DNA of 64,000 nt from a virus (taxonomy: Duplodnaviria > Caudoviricetes). The stretch's first letter is position 1, and each line of letters begins with the position of its first letter. The translations under genes were made by a program, and so were the position numbers. Positions 4,862 to 28,411 of the stretch are shown here, in pieces. Location of the stretch: the IMG/VR virus record IMGVR_UViG_3300035365_000057, positions 12,555-76,554 of that record; one strand, 5' to 3'. Below the pieces are notes generated by a model. That model was not told the DNA's origin. It saw only the letters and a program-made list of their open reading frames with translations, and did not search any database.

Positions 4862-7800
4862 TTATTTCTCTCCCGGAACCCTATTCTTAAGAGCCGTTCT
4901 GGCTTTCAATTTCTCTCTTTCCATTGCAGCATCATCTGACATTTTTTGCAATTTCTCTTCGTGCTTCATTCTTTCTTTTTCTAAGGCAACTTTCTTATCT
5001 TCAATTTCTTTCTTCATTTTCTATTCACGAATCTTATTATTGAATTCAAATTGCTTAGATGCTTCTTCTGAAGCTTGTTTTCTTTCTTCTAAGGCCTATC
5101 GACCGATTTCAAGTATATCTGGTTCGCCATTATTATTTGCATCGGTATCAACAGAACCCATATATGCATTAAGTTGAGCTACAGCTATCTTAGTCGCATT
5201 ATCTTGATCAATCTTGTATTTTTCAAGATCCATTTCAGCTTCTTTAAGCATAAGCTCTTCTTCTTTGATTTCATTCTGCATCTGAATAGCTTGCTGTTCT
5301 CTCTGAGCTTGTGCTTCTTCCATTGCTTGCTGTTGTTGCATACGTTTTTGTTCTATTTCTTCAAGTCTATTCTTGATCATAGTAACATTATCCATAGTAA
5401 TGATCTCAGCAATATCTAACAAACTAGCGCCATTCTACATAGCTGGCTACATGAGATTCTTAAGAGCTTCTATCTGTTGCTGATTCTTAGTAGTATCTTC
5501 AATAAATACATCCATATCTTCATAGAAGAAATTATCAGACAGTGTTATAAATGCTCTTGTTGCATCATCTAATACATACTATATCGATGTTTTATTATCT
5601 TTCCATGCATATTTAGCAGTATTCAGAAGCATTGTTATTGCTTCTTTTTTAACTCTGTTATGCACCCAGAACCAAGGTTCAGTAATATGAGCAGACTGTA
5701 TCACAGATCTTTCTACATTACCAACTAATTCATTAGAAGAAATTGCACCTTCTCTTTGCTTACTTACCCCTGATATTTCAGATAACATTGATTCGATCTT
5801 ATCCATAAGATTAATATACTAATCTATAGTATTAGCCATAGTAAGATCTAATGCTGATATCTGATTAAATGTAGAAGAGTTATGGCATATCGTAAAATCA
5901 TCGAGTAAGAACAAATTATCTCTGTCCAAAGTAAAACCATAATATTCGTCAATACCATAGTATTCTATTTTGAACATAGATCGATTTATGTCTTTCTGAT
6001 GAGTTTTATCTCCCTTAGCTTGTTTTCTAGCTATCTTGGTAGGTATTCTTTCACATCCTGACAGAATGGATACAACATAAGAATATTCGCTAACGTTCTT
6101 ACACAGTTTAGAAGGTTTTAACTTTTTCTTACGTATAGATACCTTCATACCTAAACTTCTAGCTATAAAAGCAAAATCGTAAGCAATATCTTTTCTATAG
6201 TCTACCTAACAAAAACCAAATCTTTTCTTTTTTGGGTCATACCATCCATCAGAGTCTATCAAACCTGCTAGTAACTCTAGTCTATCTTGCTCACAACAGT
6301 AAATATATTCTTTAGGAATGTATTTATTCTCAAAGATCCCTAATCGTTTCAGATTTTGTATTATATAGTTTGTTGGTTTATTTCTATAACCTTTTTCAGA
6401 TTTATCTGTAAGTACTAAACTTACGTTCATAGCTTTTTCGTTACGTACCTTATCGTATCTTACTCGCATATTATTATTCAAAGCAAATTGCTCCAAATAA
6501 TCCATTATTTCATAATCTGCAGTTGTTATAGTTGGTTTGGATGTCGTACCATCTCCTAACCAAAGCCCAAGCAGGTAAGGATCGAAACTATTCCTTTGTT
6601 CTCCAAAATAAAGTCCATCTTTACGATATAAGTAATATTTATCTCTACATGAAGGAGTTCTATTAAATCTCTCCATTAATGTAATTGGAGTATCTGTCTT
6701 AAAAGTAACTTCTCCGGTATGATGGTTCTTAAATCCATAATATATCTCATGCTTACTATTTACGATTTGTGGATTTCCTCCAGAAGATGGAGTAATCTTG
6801 TACATATGATCTTTTCCATGGTGAAGTTCTAGTACTGTACGTGGAGTTCCATCAGCTCCCATTACTTTATCAAACAGTTTAATATCTTCTACATTTTTTA
6901 AAGATCCGTCTGCCATTATTACTTTAGTACCCTTAATGTGACATTTACCACCTTCTCTACCAGGTATATCCCAACCTTCTTCGTACGGATTAACAAAGTT
7001 AACTCCTAGCGCAGATAAATAATGCATCCATTTAGACACATCAATATTCATTGATTTAGGTATTTGAGTAATATCCATGGTTATGATCTTACCTTTGTCT
7101 CTAGCCATAGCTAACTCAAGTCTATACCATATTATAATATACATATATTGTAAAGGCTTCATCATACTTACTAAGCTTCGTGGTCTGCTATTAGTATTAT
7201 TGTATATTACACCTGTATATGGTAATCTTTGAGCATTTGGATTATCTGCAGATATGTGTTGATACTCTAACGGTTGTATACCGATATATAAGTCTTCTCC
7301 AACTCTATAACCTTCCCAAACATCAACAATCCATTTCCATTCAACATTCAATTCGTTACCTGTAACTTTATAACTTTCATCAACTTCATATTCTTCAGGT
7401 TGTCCTGTTTCTTGATTCAAGATAGTAACGAATCCAATCTTTCTAAAAGACTTCCAACAACAATGCCATACGTGAACATTATCTGAACTTTCAAAAGGAT
7501 TGGATGTGAATCCGTTAATTGTATGTGTTTTTATATGAGGATAATCTAATGAAGTCTTACCTAATTTTGGAGTAATACCACCCTTAGATGCATCATCCAT
7601 TAATTCTAGTAACTAGTCTAGCTATTTTTCTGACATCTTATCATAAAGCCTATCATATACTTCAGTAGATGACATTATCATTTCATAGCAGCACCATTCG
7701 GCATCGTGGATGAATTCTAGATCAGAAGTATCAGTATCATAATCAAAGTATATAGGATTTATTCTTTCCATACAAGGTTCTCCATTCTATATACCTACGT

Positions 7801-11245: not shown

Positions 11246-11408
11246 AATCTCTAGTCTATTTAAAAATTGAATTAAAGGTAGAAAGCTTTCTTGATTTTTA
11301 GTACTTTCCTTGAGGAGCTACCATTACCTCCAACTACCTCTTCACTGTTGATCTTAACCTAAGAGGACATACTCTGCTATCAGACTTCAAGTATGCAGTT
11401 TTTATTTG

Positions 11409-11480
11409 TCGCCCCAGTCTCGATTCGAACGGACAACTCGAAGGTTAGAGCTTCGCATATTACCTTTATACTATGGGGCA
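11409..11480 (-). tRNA. Amber suppressor tRNA (anticodon CUA), probably Gln-charged
   Basis: TGCCCCA/TGGGGCG acceptor; anticodon arm CGAAG-CT-CTA-AC-CTTCG; T loop TTCGAAT; T stem has one bulged A; CCA not encoded. Confidence 0.9.
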
Positions 11481-20750: not shown

Positions 20751-20911
20751 GATATTCTATACACATTTCGCTTAGTAACTATTCTGTGAAAGGCAAATAT
20801 CCTTCTACAATCGTGAGATTGCAATTTACTTCGTTAAACTATAGTATTATGAGTCAGGTATGACCTCATAAAGAGTTAGGTAACGCTAACATACCATATT
20901 ACTATAGTTAC

Positions 20912-20968
20912 TCTTCTAATGCAGCCAGATAAAGACAGTCACAAGCCTGTTTAATGCAGAGTGGAAGA
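20912..20968 (+). ncRNA. Twister self-cleaving ribozyme
   Basis: P1 TCTTC/GAAGA, TAATGCAGC, P4 ACAG-TCACAAGC-CTGT, then TGCAGAGT; matches the conserved blocks of twister env9-type RNAs as I recall them (UAAUGCAGC, GCGG-UUACAAGC-CCGC, GCAGAGU). Confidence 0.85.
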
Positions 20969-21498
20969 TCGTACGATTGAGTTTAGGTTTGACTCATAAA
21001 ATAAAGTAACTAATCTTAAAGCAAGCAACGGAGAATAACGCTGTACCAAAACAGAGGACAATGGTGCTTGACAGTATGACACTAACTGATAAATAATGTG
21101 TTGTGAAAATTAATTAAAATTCATGAATTTTACTCAAGCTATATAGTGTGAGTAAACGTACAGCCGCACGTTAGTGGGTTACAGTTCGTATTCTAGCAAG
21201 AAAAGAATATTGTATTGCCGAAAACTGGGGACATGTAAATAATACGTAGGTTCCGTACACATGTTGAAGAAACCAATCGAATAGTAAGCATAGAGAAATA
21301 GGCAAACGACCAGCCAAAATGGTAGTGCTTACAAATAAAAAAGATAAGAGAAAGTGATATCCGTGCATATATAGATATCTTAGTATAGTTAAGGCCTCAA
21401 GCTGCACTGAGCAAATATATTACACTTATCTTTATTAAACTCTTTACTGAATTGCAGCCTAAATATGTCAAAGGTAGCGCATGAAAGTAAAGAGTTTC

Positions 21499-21679
21499 TA
21501 CACTGTGAGAATCAGTGTCAACTTTGTGGGGCTTATATTTAGATGAGCGCACAAAAGTAAACCTATATTGTGTGTAGCATTTCGAAAAATTATATTTAAA
21601 CTAGCTAGATAATTCGTAGAAAGAGTGATATCAGTATAGAGAGACTTTTGCATCTAATATTAGTGCAGAGAAATCAAAG
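21499..21679 (+). ncRNA. Hatchet self-cleaving ribozyme 1 (with ~100-nt insertion)
   Basis: P1 ACACTG-TGAGAAT-CAGTGT, CAA, CTTTG, TGGGGCTTATA, TTAGATG/CATCTAA stem, TATTAGTGCAG, closing CAAAG. Confidence 0.85.
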
Positions 21680-21783
21680 ACAAGATTATATCCTGAGTGT
21701 ATAATCTAGTAAACTACTAGAGGCTGGTCACCTCGGCAGGAAAGCGCGACCATGGAGAGGTTTGTGGTAGTACCTCTCCGCTC

Positions 21784-21889
21784 TTTATGGTGAGAATCCA
21801 TGACAAGCATGTGGGGCTTATATCTTTATGAGAGACAATACGGTAAAAATACCCTTCATAAAGTATTAGTGCGGACTTAAAAATCATGC
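21784..21889 (+). ncRNA. Hatchet self-cleaving ribozyme 2
   Basis: P1 TTATGG-TGAGAAT-CCATGA, CAA, GCATG, TGGGGCTTATA, CTTTATGA/TCATAAAG, TATTAGTGCGGACTTAAAAAT, closing CATGC. Confidence 0.9.
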
Positions 21890-22054
21890 AATGTAACAAT
21901 TTACTTCTCAATCTCGCGTATAAATACTTCACGTTACAAATCTTGTTACATTTATTTGGGCTAAGTGTAGCCTAGTCATTAGCCACTTTATAAAACCTTC
22001 TTTCTTTTATGTAAAGATCTAGCATATTAGTCTGTGAAGATCGATATGCTAGGT

Positions 22055-22139
22055 GCACTCATGAGATAACCTTCACGTGGTGAGTGTGTAAGTAAGGGTC
22101 TAACAAAACTTCCTATTCTACCCTGAAACTAATATCTCA
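22055..22139 (+). ncRNA. HDV-like (theta-type) self-cleaving ribozyme
   Basis: P1 GCACTC/GAGTGT with first G.U pair; P2 TGAGATA/TATCTCA; P3 ACC/GGT; L3 TTCACGT; P4 AGGGT/ACCCT; J4/2 A-C(22129)-TAA. Confidence 0.85.
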
Positions 22140-22142
22140 AAT

Positions 22143-22276: not shown

Positions 22277-22534
22277 ATGGAAAAAATTAAAGATTTTCTC
22301 AAGAGAAATGACATTAAGCTAGCAGCAAATGCTAAGGCTAAGAAACTTATTGAAGGTAATGCAGAAGAAGCAACAATCGCCGTGGCTATGAAGTCTACGA
22401 AGGCTTACAAAGAGAACGCCGAATTACGTAGTCTTTGCGACGAAATTATTTCCGCTGCCGGTAAGCAACAAGCTGAACGTAAAGAAGCACCGACTAGCAC
22501 ATCCGATTGTCCTGGAGAAAGAACCAGATGGTAA
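22277..22534 (+). CDS. Hypothetical protein
   Basis: 85-aa ORF with TATCAAAATT-ATG leader. Confidence 0.7.
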   Translation: MEKIKDFLKRNDIKLAANAKAKKLIEGNAEEATIAVAMKSTKAYKENAELRSLCDEIISAAGKQQAERKEAPTSTSDCPGERTRW

Positions 22535-22601
22535 AAATGAATAAAGCTCTATATAGTATTTCTACCATATAGAGCTTTTTAAACTATTAAATTAATTTAT
22601 T

Positions 22602-23837
22602 ATGACTAAATGGCAAGAATCGTGCATTACAGCACTCGCTTCATCACCATTCGCATGGGAAGCCTTTAAAATGAAGCAAAGAAACAAGAACTTATTATGG
22701 CAATATATAAATAGAATATGGCCGTATCACCGTATTGTAAGTACTAATAAAAAGTTATCGAAAGATTCACAAATGATTAATGAATTGAATAGATTACTAG
22801 TATATCTTAAAGCATATGATATAGAATCTAATTGTAATTATGATTTCTCATCGGCTATTGATTTTATAATTACAGATAAAGATATGATAGCAATTGAAGC
22901 AGCACGTTTATTACCAGATTCTGCGAGAAATATATATGATACTAATAGATTTAATGTTACTCTTACAGAAGGTAATTCGGTATCAGGTACTACTGATATT
23001 ATTGAACTTTTAGCGAATCAACAAGTTGGAAATCATATACATTTCAATGCTATTTGTGGACATATGAATAAACCTAAAGAACAAATTAAAAATTGTATTC
23101 ATGGCATTGAACTTTTAATATGTACTTATAATTCGATACATGAAACGCAAAAAGAAACTAAATTAATTAAGAAAAAGATTAAGACATTAAATTGGCTAAA
23201 TATTGGTATTGAAATAGAACATGATGCTTCAAATGAAACCTCTGAAAAAATTGTGAAACGTATTTTACAACAAAATTGTACAGAATACGATTCTGGTTAT
23301 GATGGAGGAATGCGTTCTCGATTACGAGAAAATAGGATTCGTCTTAACGGTATTAAAGGTCTTAAAGGTTTATATACTTTATTACAAGATATGCAAGAAA
23401 ATGCAGCAATTGCTAATAATAGTAGTGTGCATATGCATGTTGATTGTAAATTTGATAATTCTTACGAAAGAATAAAATCAAATGTTAACAGTATGGTTAA
23501 CGAAGGTAGAAGAAACTTTGCAGATCTAGAACAAACTTTTGTAGATATTATTCTAAATTATGAAATTTTAGAAGAATTTGTACAAATTTTTGATTTACAT
23601 AAAATATCGTGTATTTCTGATTTTGAAAGATGGGTAGATTTGAACGGTATTATTCGATTTAATAATGAGTTTAATACTGTTGAATATCGTTTCTGCATAC
23701 CAAACTTTAATTATTCTGATTATGTGATTCAAATATTATTCTTAATACATATTACAGAATGTATTAAGCATAATTCTCCTATTAACAAAAATTACGTAAT
23801 AATGCTATATAGAATAATGAATAGTATACGTAATTAA
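22602..23837 (+). CDS. Putative amidoligase (COOH-NH2 ligase type 2 family) domain protein
   Basis: C-terminal motifs IGIEIEH, SSVHMHVD, TVEYRF. Confidence 0.65.
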   Translation: MTKWQESCITALASSPFAWEAFKMKQRNKNLLWQYINRIWPYHRIVSTNKKLSKDSQMINELNRLLVYLKAYDIESNCNYDFSSAIDFIITDKDMIAIEAARLLPDSARNIYDTNRFNVTLTEGNSVSGTTDIIELLANQQVGNHIHFNAICGHMNKPKEQIKNCIHGIELLICTYNSIHETQKETKLIKKKIKTLNWLNIGIEIEHDASNETSEKIVKRILQQNCTEYDSGYDGGMRSRLRENRIRLNGIKGLKGLYTLLQDMQENAAIANNSSVHMHVDCKFDNSYERIKSNVNSMVNEGRRNFADLEQTFVDIILNYEILEEFVQIFDLHKISCISDFERWVDLNGIIRFNNEFNTVEYRFCIPNFNYSDYVIQILFLIHITECIKHNSPINKNYVIMLYRIMNSIRN

Positions 23838-24245
23838 TAATTAAATTATATTTTAATAGCAAATCGGGAATTAAATGACGATTGACGCTGGACAGACAGC
23901 TGCGCTTGGATGCGTATTTTTAGAAATGTATGATATCAGCATACATTTCAGGTCTCCGACTTTGACAATTATTCCTGATATGTTTAGTTGTCATAACTGG
24001 GATTAATGTTAATAGGTAAGGCCATTACCTAAAACATTCGGTGCCACAACTAGTTCTTGCCAAACAAATGTGGATGGGAGTAATATATTGGAGTAGCTAC
24101 CAATATATTATTCAGCTCTTCATTGGAGTGGTGAACCAATGATTCTAGCCCTATAGTTTAAACATACGTAAAACAAGCCTTAAGAAAGCTTTTGCAATAG
24201 TCGTTCATTGCTAGGGTACATTATTAACTTTAAAATATTATCAAA

Positions 24246-24518
24246 ATGATTAAACCAGTAAATCCAAGGCATCATATTATAGTATATATGCCATTAAGAT
24301 TATTAATGTTCTTGATTAAGAAGAAAATTTTACACCAATGGTTAACTTATGTTATACGAGAACAAACAGGATTAAGAACTGCACCAGAAATAGTCAGATT
24401 CCTAGTATGCCATAAAGAAAACACATTTAGTGGATTATTTCCATGGTCTTATACCGTAGAAGGATCAGACTTTTGGTTAGATGTTGATCGAAAATGGCGG
24501 AATAGTATATGGAAATAA
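24246..24518 (+). CDS. Hypothetical protein
   Basis: 90-aa ORF with TATCAAA-ATG leader. Confidence 0.65.
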   Translation: MIKPVNPRHHIIVYMPLRLLMFLIKKKILHQWLTYVIREQTGLRTAPEIVRFLVCHKENTFSGLFPWSYTVEGSDFWLDVDRKWRNSIWK

Positions 24519-24694
24519 TATTATTGAAAGTAATCATAATAATATTTGCTATGATTACTGGAGGATTTATAACTCTTAGTTTTGTTTGTTTGTTAATTCT
24601 TGAAAAAAAGAAAAGCATCGAGTGCGCAGAATATGCAACAATAAGCTTTATAATAATGCTGTTATTTATAATCTATACATATAACATTAATTAA
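24509..24694 (+). CDS. Small membrane protein
   Basis: 61 aa, two hydrophobic helices. Confidence 0.55.
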   Translation: MEIILLKVIIIIFAMITGGFITLSFVCLLILEKKKSIECAEYATISFIIMLLFIIYTYNIN

Positions 24695-24707
24695 AATTAT
24701 TATCAAA

Positions 24708-25163
24708 ATGGAAAATTTAGAAAAAAAGAAAAGCCACAACTGGATTTGGTGGTTAATCGCGATGATTATCGCATGTGTTACAACTGGTTTCATTGTCCAC
24801 AATAACGGACCTGAGATTAACAAACTCCTTGATCGTGGAAACGATATTGGGTTACAAGAAGGTATTGTATGCGAAGATACGGCATATGCTGAGCCAAGCA
24901 TACAAGATATTCTCGAATTTAGAGAATATGCTCGTGAATGCAAACGAATTGATAGTATATTTATAACAATGCCGGATGTGGTTCTTATTGACATACTCAT
25001 GAATCACGGTACAAGTCTATCAAATTCGGATATTGTATACATATATGAAAACAATCCGAAGACATATAATGCAGTGCAATCAGGGGCAAGAGCTCAAAGG
25101 TATAAAGAACAAATTGAACCAGACAGCTTACCAACAAAGCCTATTCCAGATAAATTGGAATAA
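24708..25163 (+). CDS. Membrane-anchored hypothetical protein
   Basis: 151 aa with N-terminal hydrophobic segment WIWWLIAMIIACVTTGFIV. Confidence 0.7.
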   Translation: MENLEKKKSHNWIWWLIAMIIACVTTGFIVHNNGPEINKLLDRGNDIGLQEGIVCEDTAYAEPSIQDILEFREYARECKRIDSIFITMPDVVLIDILMNHGTSLSNSDIVYIYENNPKTYNAVQSGARAQRYKEQIEPDSLPTKPIPDKLE

Positions 25164-25234
25164 CTTTTTTTATTTGTGTCACTTTACCTTTTTATGTTTT
25201 AAGTCATACTAGTCTGTGAGGATAGGTATGACGT

Positions 25235-25353
25235 CCTCAGAAGATGACAAACCTGTGGGGCGTAAACTATGTCCTATTTTAAGAGTTAGGCTTGCATAAC
25301 TCAGTAAATCAGGATGCAAGAACATAGTGATCGTGCGGACGTTAAAATCAGGT
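25235..25353 (+). ncRNA. Hatchet self-cleaving ribozyme 3
   Basis: CCTCAGAAGATGACAAACCTGTGGGGCGTAA...GATCGTGCGGACGTTAAAATCAGGT, near-identical to the published hatchet construct blocks as I recall them; ACTATGT/ACATAGT insert stem. Confidence 0.92.
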
Positions 25354-26784: not shown

Positions 26785-26995
26785 CTAAAACTTAGTATAC
26801 ATGGTGGATTCAGTCAACCTAAGAACTATTTTATAACCAGAATCCTAATGGAAGCCCAAAAGGCAAGAGTACAAGGGACCATACAACGGTCAACCAATTT
26901 ATATTGGTCTGGAGAAGAGCAGGGGTTATCTACTAAATAAGACGTACGAATAAGTAGAAATAGTTCTTTTTATTTAAAAATCAAAATTAAAAAAC

Positions 26996-28149: not shown

Positions 28150-28411
28150 GGCTAGTAACTTTGGTCGGTCACTAGCCTACTATTGACTGTTAGGTCATTA
28201 TACAATCGTTAAGACGGGGCTCTCGGATGCCCCTACCTCCACTAAGTAATGTTTACGTAATTAATTTACACAAGAAACGTTCTATTTTATGTATATTATA
28301 TTAAGGGGGTAAACGGTTTTTGATTAGCGATGAGATGTAGTGAATAGGTCAATAAAGCCGATAAATGGCAAAACTTTCGTAACAGACTACACTCGTATCG
28401 CCGCAGCGTGA
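28150..28411 (+). ncRNA. ssrA: Circularly permuted (two-piece) tmRNA gene
   Basis: Acceptor piece first (GAC-GGGGC-TCTCGGAT-GCCCC-TACCTCC-A, 28213-28241); coding piece later (GGGGGTA...GGTTTTTGA from 28305); G3.U70 pair; three P2 helices between the pieces; tag frame GKTFVTDYTRIAAA-TGA at 28367-28411. Confidence 0.88.

Follow-up and report, generated by a model that had tools for sequence, protein, structure and literature searches.

What does a phage genome gain from hatchet ribozymes? To our knowledge, no biological role has been shown for this class of self-cleaving RNAs, which was first described from anonymous metagenome scaffolds only and for which Weinberg et al. 2015 is reportedly the source. 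The question is raised here by a 64,000-nt stretch of phage DNA (the window), in which a first-pass annotation had proposed two hatchets about 290 nt apart and a third copy at 25235. In this work, Rfam searches, comparison with related phages, and RNA folding were applied to the locus and its surroundings.

The Rfam hatchet model (RF02678, gathering score 51 bits) was run with cmscan over the whole window, over 19-29 kb with a relaxed threshold, and over the whole 76.5-kb source record. Three matches were obtained in the record, all on the plus strand and none elsewhere, and each covers model positions 1-133, i.e. the full length (copies A, B, and C; Table 1). Because all three scores lie well above the gathering score, chance resemblance is excluded, and we regard the three copies as practically certain members of the hatchet family. 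The predicted scissile bonds of A and B are 285 nt apart, in agreement with the proposed spacing. The sequence blocks listed for this pair in the first-pass annotation (the UGAGAAU loop of P1, CAA, TGGGGCTTATA, and TATTAGTGC), as well as the closing stems CTTTG/CAAAG and GCATG/CATGC, are all found in the plus-strand sequence, and the proposed third copy coincides with match C, which lies 3.4 kb further downstream.

Table 1. Features of the hatchet locus and other elements of the window (positions in the window)
Feature	Position	Strand	Evidence or remark
464-aa ORF with Hint and LAGLIDADG homing-endonuclease domains	6206-7600	-	intein-containing gene
Suppressor-type tRNA, anticodon CUA	11408-11480	-	ARAGORN: tRNA-Pyl
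RAGATH-6-like RNA	20761-20912	+	120.8 bits, below gathering score; E 1e-19
Twister-P1-like element	20913-20967	+	50.6 bits, cut-off 67.2; E 3e-10
RAGATH-7, 3' two thirds	to 21103	+	59.8 bits, below gathering score; E 2e-12
P0 of copy A, 12-bp stem	21437-21448 with 21486-21497	+	fold, -20.2 kcal/mol; 2 nt before predicted cut
Hatchet copy A	21496-21679	+	RF02678, 78.9 bits; E 1.3e-14
Copy A, predicted cut	between U21499 and A21500	+	
Copy A, P1 ACACTG/CAGTGT, loop TGAGAAT	21500-21518	+	sequence
Predicted RNA between the cuts of A and B, 285 nt	21500-21784	+	
Copy A, CAA linker	21519-21521	+	sequence
Copy A, P2 CTTTG/CAAAG	21522-21526 with 21675-21679	+	sequence
A-B spacer, 101 nt	21680-21780	+	two small hairpins and P0 of copy B
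P0 of copy B, 8-bp stem	21754-21761 with 21772-21779	+	fold
Hatchet copy B	21781-21889	+	RF02678, 99.2 bits; E 6.8e-20
Copy B, predicted cut	between U21784 and U21785	+	
Copy B, P1 TTATGG/CCATGA, loop TGAGAAT (as copy A)	21785-21803	+	sequence
Copy B, CAA linker	21804-21806	+	sequence
Copy B, P2 GCATG/CATGC	21807-21811 with 21885-21889	+	sequence
Small hairpin GGGC-UAAGUGUA-GCCU, then AGUC	21957-21980	+	downstream of copy B
Structured RNA without Rfam match	about 22018-22140	+	ends 2 nt before tRNA-Leu
tRNA-Leu, anticodon UAA	22143-22228	+	253 nt downstream of copy B
P0 of copy C: 8 bp, internal A/A, 4 bp, GUGA loop	25203-25232	+	fold
Hatchet copy C	25233-25353	+	RF02678, 88.4 bits; E 4.4e-17
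Copy C, predicted cut	between C25236 and U25237	+	
RAGATH-9 RNA	26810-26968	+	133 bits, above cut-off
Permuted-tmRNA-like match	28182-28411	+	38.7 bits, cut-off 47

Hatchets consist of the stems P1-P4, with P1 of three base pairs in 40% and of six in 59% of the class. The P1-P2 linker and the P2-P3 bulge contain conserved residues, the P4 arm is variable, and about 90% of hatchets have a dispensable hairpin, P0, immediately upstream of the cleavage site (Li et al. 2015, PMC4604424). The copies in the window have the same P1-P4 layout, P0 hairpin, and variable P4 arm, with P1 of six base pairs in A and B and of three in C (UCA/UGA, loop GAAGA; P2 is ACCUG/CAGGU). The CAA linker, the UGGGG and GUGCRG blocks, and the AAA triplet before P2 are kept in all three. 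L3 of copies A and B contains UAUAU/UAUU flanking P4, the putative docking partner of the UGAGAAU loop, and in copy C, as in all its C-type relatives, L3 is UAA/GAU and the L1 loop is GAAGA. Copies B and C show nothing outside the family range, whereas copy A falls into a subclass with a short L2 and has a long P4 arm, both of which are considered below.

The crystal structure of a hatchet and the accompanying mutants (Zheng et al. 2019, PMC6561176) showed that P1 begins with the pair U1-A19 and that C20-A22, U28-G31, G63-G66, and A73-A75 are highly conserved segments. According to the same study, cleavage is abolished by changes at C20/G30, G31/C64, G63, or G66, while the mutants A65G (with wild-type activity), C(-1)U, C(-1)A, and ACGU-to-UUUU are still active. 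All four segments (env10 numbering) are present in copies A, B, and C; position 65 is G in B and C, and the residue 5' of the predicted cut is U in A and B and C in copy C. Mapping of the Rfam alignment onto this numbering placed the scissile bond between model positions 4 and 5, so that, as in the class at large, the predicted cut is at the very 5' end and the ribozyme stays on the downstream product. A cut between model positions 3 and 4 (C/U) was ruled out, since U1-A19 is the first P1 pair (PMC6561176) and, for Ht-1, the 3' product coincides with the P1 strand (Li et al. 2015, PMC4604424). Nearest-neighbour folding put the hatchet fold 4-7 kcal/mol above the unconstrained minimum in all three copies; such a penalty is expected where tertiary contacts hold the core, and it lends the hatchet fold no support.

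The phage is placed among the Suoliviridae-like Crassvirales by its nucleotide similarity to, and its synteny with, phages already classified there. Among named sequences, it comes closest to the crAss-like phages cr4_1, cr53_1, cr114_1, and cr125_1, all of them Suoliviridae from human faeces. In these four genomes, RAGATH-6 and RAGATH-7 are followed on a single strand by one or two hatchets and, as a rule, tRNA-Leu; after small ORFs and another hatchet come further ORFs, RAGATH-9, and a permuted tmRNA. The same synteny was found in 20 IMG/VR islands at Rfam gathering thresholds. The window likewise contains a RAGATH-9 RNA and a permuted-tmRNA-like match, as in the Suoliviridae relatives.

A scan of IMG/VR for the hatchet core motif yielded at least 116 stretches, and since this motif favours the A- and B-type copies defined below, the following record counts are conditional on that bias: among 50 whole related records searched with RF02678, 18 have three copies, 18 have two, 14 have one, and none has more than three. 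In all 18 three-copy records, one strand carries a tandem pair and, about 1.7-3.4 kb further downstream, the third copy. The count of three hatchets in one phage is correct, but they are not special to this genome, since they represent the standard layout of a large related group.

The copies of this group fall into three positional classes. Class A has a 6-bp P1 (ACACUG or AUACUG), a P2 that is always CUUUG/CAAAG, and an L2 of 8-10 nt; class B has a 6-bp, UUAAGG-like P1, P2 GCAUG/CAUGC or UCCUG/CAGGA, and an L2 of 12 nt; class C has a 3-bp P1, P2 ACCUG, GCAUG, or ACAUG with matching partners, and also a 12-nt L2. Positions 34 and 60 form a G-C pair in C-type copies and a U-A pair in A- and B-type ones. 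Across 70 related copies, P1, P2, and the N34-N60 pair covary, with a single non-standard pair in P1 and P2. In a maximum-likelihood tree of the cores, the A-type copies and the 3-bp C-type copies each form a clade with 100/100 support, and B is unresolved around A. Among the 188 distinct hatchets sampled, a B-type copy follows 82-146 nt downstream of the A-type copy in all 38 cases with enough flank. The three copies in the window are the positional orthologues A, B, and C of this conserved Suoliviridae-like layout. One hatchet with a 6-bp P1 was observed at the C position (L131, 4242-4343 of IMG/VR contig 3300045988_058019); it sits on a long branch and is without the usual P0.

Copy A had been described as carrying an insertion of about 100 nt. 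It is indeed longer than copy B (184 versus 109 nt), but the difference is 75 nt, all of it in the distal P4 arm, and it is no foreign insert. In related phages, the hatchet matches range from 84 to 189 nt, and among 40 distinct A-type copies, which range from 81 to 184 nt (median 154), copy A is the longest. Parts of its P4 arm align with the 159-163-nt A-type copies of relatives, and constrained folding with the hatchet stems enforced turns the extension into one long imperfect arm, at a penalty relative to the free minimum of 6.9 kcal/mol, compared with 7.2 kcal/mol for copy C. Because lengths vary among relatives, the arms partly align, and the extension folds as one arm, the longer arm of copy A is ordinary P4 length variation. 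A conserved folded insert in P4 was also considered, and RNAalifold on nine long A-type copies found nothing shared beyond the P4 base.

The P4 base differs between alleles yet stays paired. In three pairs of relatives (L129 versus L143, L127 versus L141, and L134 versus L005), the distal P4 arm of hatchet B is swapped for unrelated sequence of another length, with flanks about 97% identical. The arm looks like a hot spot of recombination or replacement.

The short L2 of copy A bears on how fast it cuts, or whether it cuts at all. The 3' strand of L2 is 12 nt long in copies B and C (consensus AGACGUUAAAAU) and 8 nt in copy A (AGAGAAAU), a length and sequence shared by 13 of the 19 tabulated A-type copies, the other six having 8-10 nt. 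Lacking 4 nt of the consensus L2, copy A might cut slowly or not at all, although substitution of ACGU in this segment is tolerated. In the extreme case, copy A would be a catalytically dead relic of a duplication with a structural role only, such as that of a bulky cap at the 3' end of the upstream RNA, and B and C alone would cut. The shortened A-type L2 is also more variable (AGAGAAAU, AGAUGAAAU, AGAUACAU, AGAGUAAUAU), A-type copies score lowest of the three classes (69-91 bits), and their clade is on a long branch, as a relic would lead one to expect. Against this, none of the 19 A-type copies has lost a residue whose change abolishes activity (C20, G30, G31, G63, C64, and G66), compensatory changes preserve P1 within the class (ACACUG/CAGUGU versus AUACUG/CAGUAU), and the UGAGAAU loop is conserved together with its L3 partner. 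A core so well kept across genera is not expected of a relic, and we consider a dead copy A unlikely.

The predicted cuts of all three copies follow the P0 hairpins by 2-5 nt, and a P0 hairpin lies directly 5' of nearly every related hatchet. P0 of copy C is located 3' of the stop codon (25161-25163) of ORF 24708-25163, and its architecture recurs in most C-type relatives with compensatory changes in the stem. A long hairpin like the P0 of copy A precedes the single B-type copy of cr114_1 and cr125_1.

If both A and B are active, the two cuts on one strand necessarily release a 285-nt RNA made up of hatchet A, the spacer, and P0 of copy B. Its ends would be a 5'-hydroxyl and a 2',3'-cyclic phosphate, and a host ligase of the RtcB type could possibly close it into a circle. 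This raises the alternative that the A-B interval itself matters and that the released fragment acts as a small RNA. In its favour, A-type copies form one well-supported clade whose members always have a B copy at the short distance given above, and the unit is present or absent as a block in close genomes, where its breakpoints fall within 0-4 nt of the two scissile bonds. On the other hand, the spacer sequence differs between genera, so that only its length, 82-146 nt in the 38 related pairs, and the P0 hairpin are kept, and A is absent from many related phages. A small-RNA role of the fragment therefore appears quite improbable.

The block itself can be accounted for in another way. In two-copy relatives, a complete B-type hatchet stands directly behind the hairpin that precedes A in the closest three-copy relative; therefore, one hatchet can do the job. 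An indel with the same ends in several lineages can stem from one old duplication and recombination in the flanks, and the block of hatchet A, spacer, and P0 of B is most simply explained by such a duplication, spread or lost by recombination in the conserved flanks. Comparison of the A-B spacer with the sequence after B, made by eye for traces of a duplication, revealed no similarity. A further reading, which we consider very unlikely, takes the same block as a discrete module at the RNA and DNA levels alike. If it were true, the module would be excised as a 285-nt RNA whose 5'-hydroxyl and cyclic-phosphate ends suit RtcB-type ligation into a circle, and it would spread or be lost as a ribozyme-bounded unit, a counterpart in prokaryotic viruses of the hammerhead-bounded retrozymes.

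The hatchet pair is embedded in an RNA island of 1.5 kb (about 20.7-22.27 kb) that contains no credible plus-strand ORF. The RAGATH families owe their name to the twister and hammerhead gene neighbourhoods with which they are associated. Upstream of copy A, a RAGATH-6-like RNA is followed directly by a twister-P1-like element, which here replaces the 5' hairpin of RAGATH-7, and then by the remaining two thirds of RAGATH-7. The twister-P1-like element may be the fourth self-cleaving ribozyme of the island. At the corresponding position, relatives have full-scoring RAGATH-6, RAGATH-7, and RAGATH-7-assoc RNAs. Like the ribozyme and RAGATH islands of other gut phages, the window has its hatchets among RAGATH-6, RAGATH-7, and RAGATH-9 RNAs and a twister-like element, all encoded on one strand, and their order matches that in cr4_1, cr53_1, cr114_1, cr125_1, and the 20 IMG/VR contigs. 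It differs in that RAGATH-6 and RAGATH-7 score below the Rfam cut-offs and RAGATH-7-assoc was not detected, and this phage is a divergent member of the group.

Downstream of copy B, a small hairpin of the form NNNN-UAAGNGUA-NNNN followed by AGUC was found. In relatives, one or two such hairpins lie in the 300 nt that follow B-type hatchets, and their stems covary; they are present behind nearly all B-type copies and behind no copy with a 3-bp P1 (C-type). A-type copies have none of their own: two A-type entries also show such a loop, but one of them is from the window, where this is the hairpin following B. The middle of the loop was compared with the B-type L2 (ACNUU): GAG occurs almost only with ACUUUA, and GCG with ACGUUA, with at least 11 exceptions in samples that are related to one another. 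In the window, L2 of copy B is ACUUAA and the loop GUG, a combination that no single pairing register fits. The middle base of the loop tracking the L2 variant hints at a long-range contact, with exceptions that include this window.

Next follows a structured RNA that has relatives in 22 of 26 related loci, with compensatory changes at 12 of the 31 consensus pairs. It contains a 16-bp hairpin with a GUGA loop, a stem of the AUAGGU/ACCUAU type, a covarying long-range stem (GAGAUA/UAUCUC here), and a GCACUC/GAGUGU stem that encloses a small hairpin whose loop, UUCACGU, is nearly invariant, with UUCAUGU as the one variant. Pistol and hammerhead were considered as identities for it, and no Rfam match was obtained at E values up to 1.

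The tRNA-Leu behind this RNA suggests another task for the hatchets, namely to free the tRNA-Leu precursor, as HDV-like ribozymes supposedly do for other gut-phage tRNAs. A same-strand tRNA (tRNA-Leu where typed) indeed lies 253-943 nt downstream of B in 20 of the 26 loci. However, the cut is 358 nt upstream of the tRNA 5' end, with the structured RNA in between, and RNase P would therefore still be needed. In addition, the Aurodevirus relatives (cr114_1 and cr125_1) and others keep B and C without a tRNA at this place, one locus has the tRNA upstream of A, and no tRNA lies near copy C. We regard tRNA maturation as a highly improbable role.

Copy C is located between the stop codon of ORF 24708-25163 and the next ORF. 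Ten flanking ORFs were compared with Pfam and PHROG and no family matched; therefore, the proteins give no clue to function. A DnaB-like helicase, a primase, and an AAA ATPase are encoded further along the same strand, and the island therefore heads a block of replication genes. A sigma-70 scan revealed fewer promoter-like sites than in shuffled sequences, with only a few weak terminator-like sites, and such a scan is uninformative for a phage of Bacteroidota. Elsewhere in the window, on the minus strand, a suppressor-type tRNA with the anticodon CUA suggests that in part of the genome TAG stands for an amino acid residue, and an intein-containing gene was found (Table 1).

Beside the observed ribozyme identity, conservation, covariation, P0 hairpins, and synteny, we propose a functional reading, which we hold to be rather probable: three working hatchets punctuate one long transcript, for which we infer co-transcription, cleavage in vivo, and an effect on RNA stability. 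One long plus-strand RNA would start near 19 kb and run through the RNA island and the small ORFs into the replication genes. Each ribozyme would fold during transcription and cut just 5' of its P1, at the three predicted bonds. Since these bonds follow P0 by 2-5 nt, the upstream piece would end in a hairpin with a 2',3'-cyclic phosphate at its 3' end, and the downstream piece would begin with a 5'-hydroxyl and the compact ribozyme fold. The primary transcript would in this way be split into units with their own stability and fate: the upstream RAGATH and twister RNAs; the 285-nt A fragment; a B-led RNA with the uncatalogued structured RNA, tRNA-Leu, and the ORFs within 22277-25163; and a C-led mRNA. 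By cutting twice, the A/B pair would provide redundancy and guarantee that the upstream RNAs are parted from the B-led RNA.

Similar principles are known from other systems. With tandem intrinsic terminators, the doubling of an element makes it more likely that the upstream RNA is uncoupled from the downstream one, and ribozyme 'insulators' in synthetic operons give the downstream RNA a defined end by means of a 5'-terminal ribozyme. In contrast to both, the separation proposed here would take place in a natural phage operon, whose RNA, once transcribed, would cleave itself.

The confinement of hatchets to Crassvirales is mentioned in passing in two 2026 preprints that draw on Rfam, and a 2023 review of Crassvirales mentions ribozymes in connection with introns only. 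No description of the A/B/C layout was found in the literature, the 2015 discovery paper and its supplements lying outside the search. The locus is a new example of a known RNA class in its usual host, the confinement to Crassvirales being already known, and for the window alone the finding is ordinary, as the Rfam model detects the copies at once. Its added value is the well-defined and widely conserved context.

Together with its relatives, the locus gives the hatchet a defined and repeatable setting: three positional classes, with each copy directly behind a hairpin, in a multi-ribozyme RNA island that heads the replication-gene block of abundant human-gut phages. A natural subclass with a short L2, the A-type copies, is singled out, and its activity would inform the structural model of the ribozyme. 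The question of what the hatchet is for thereby becomes a question about specific cut sites.
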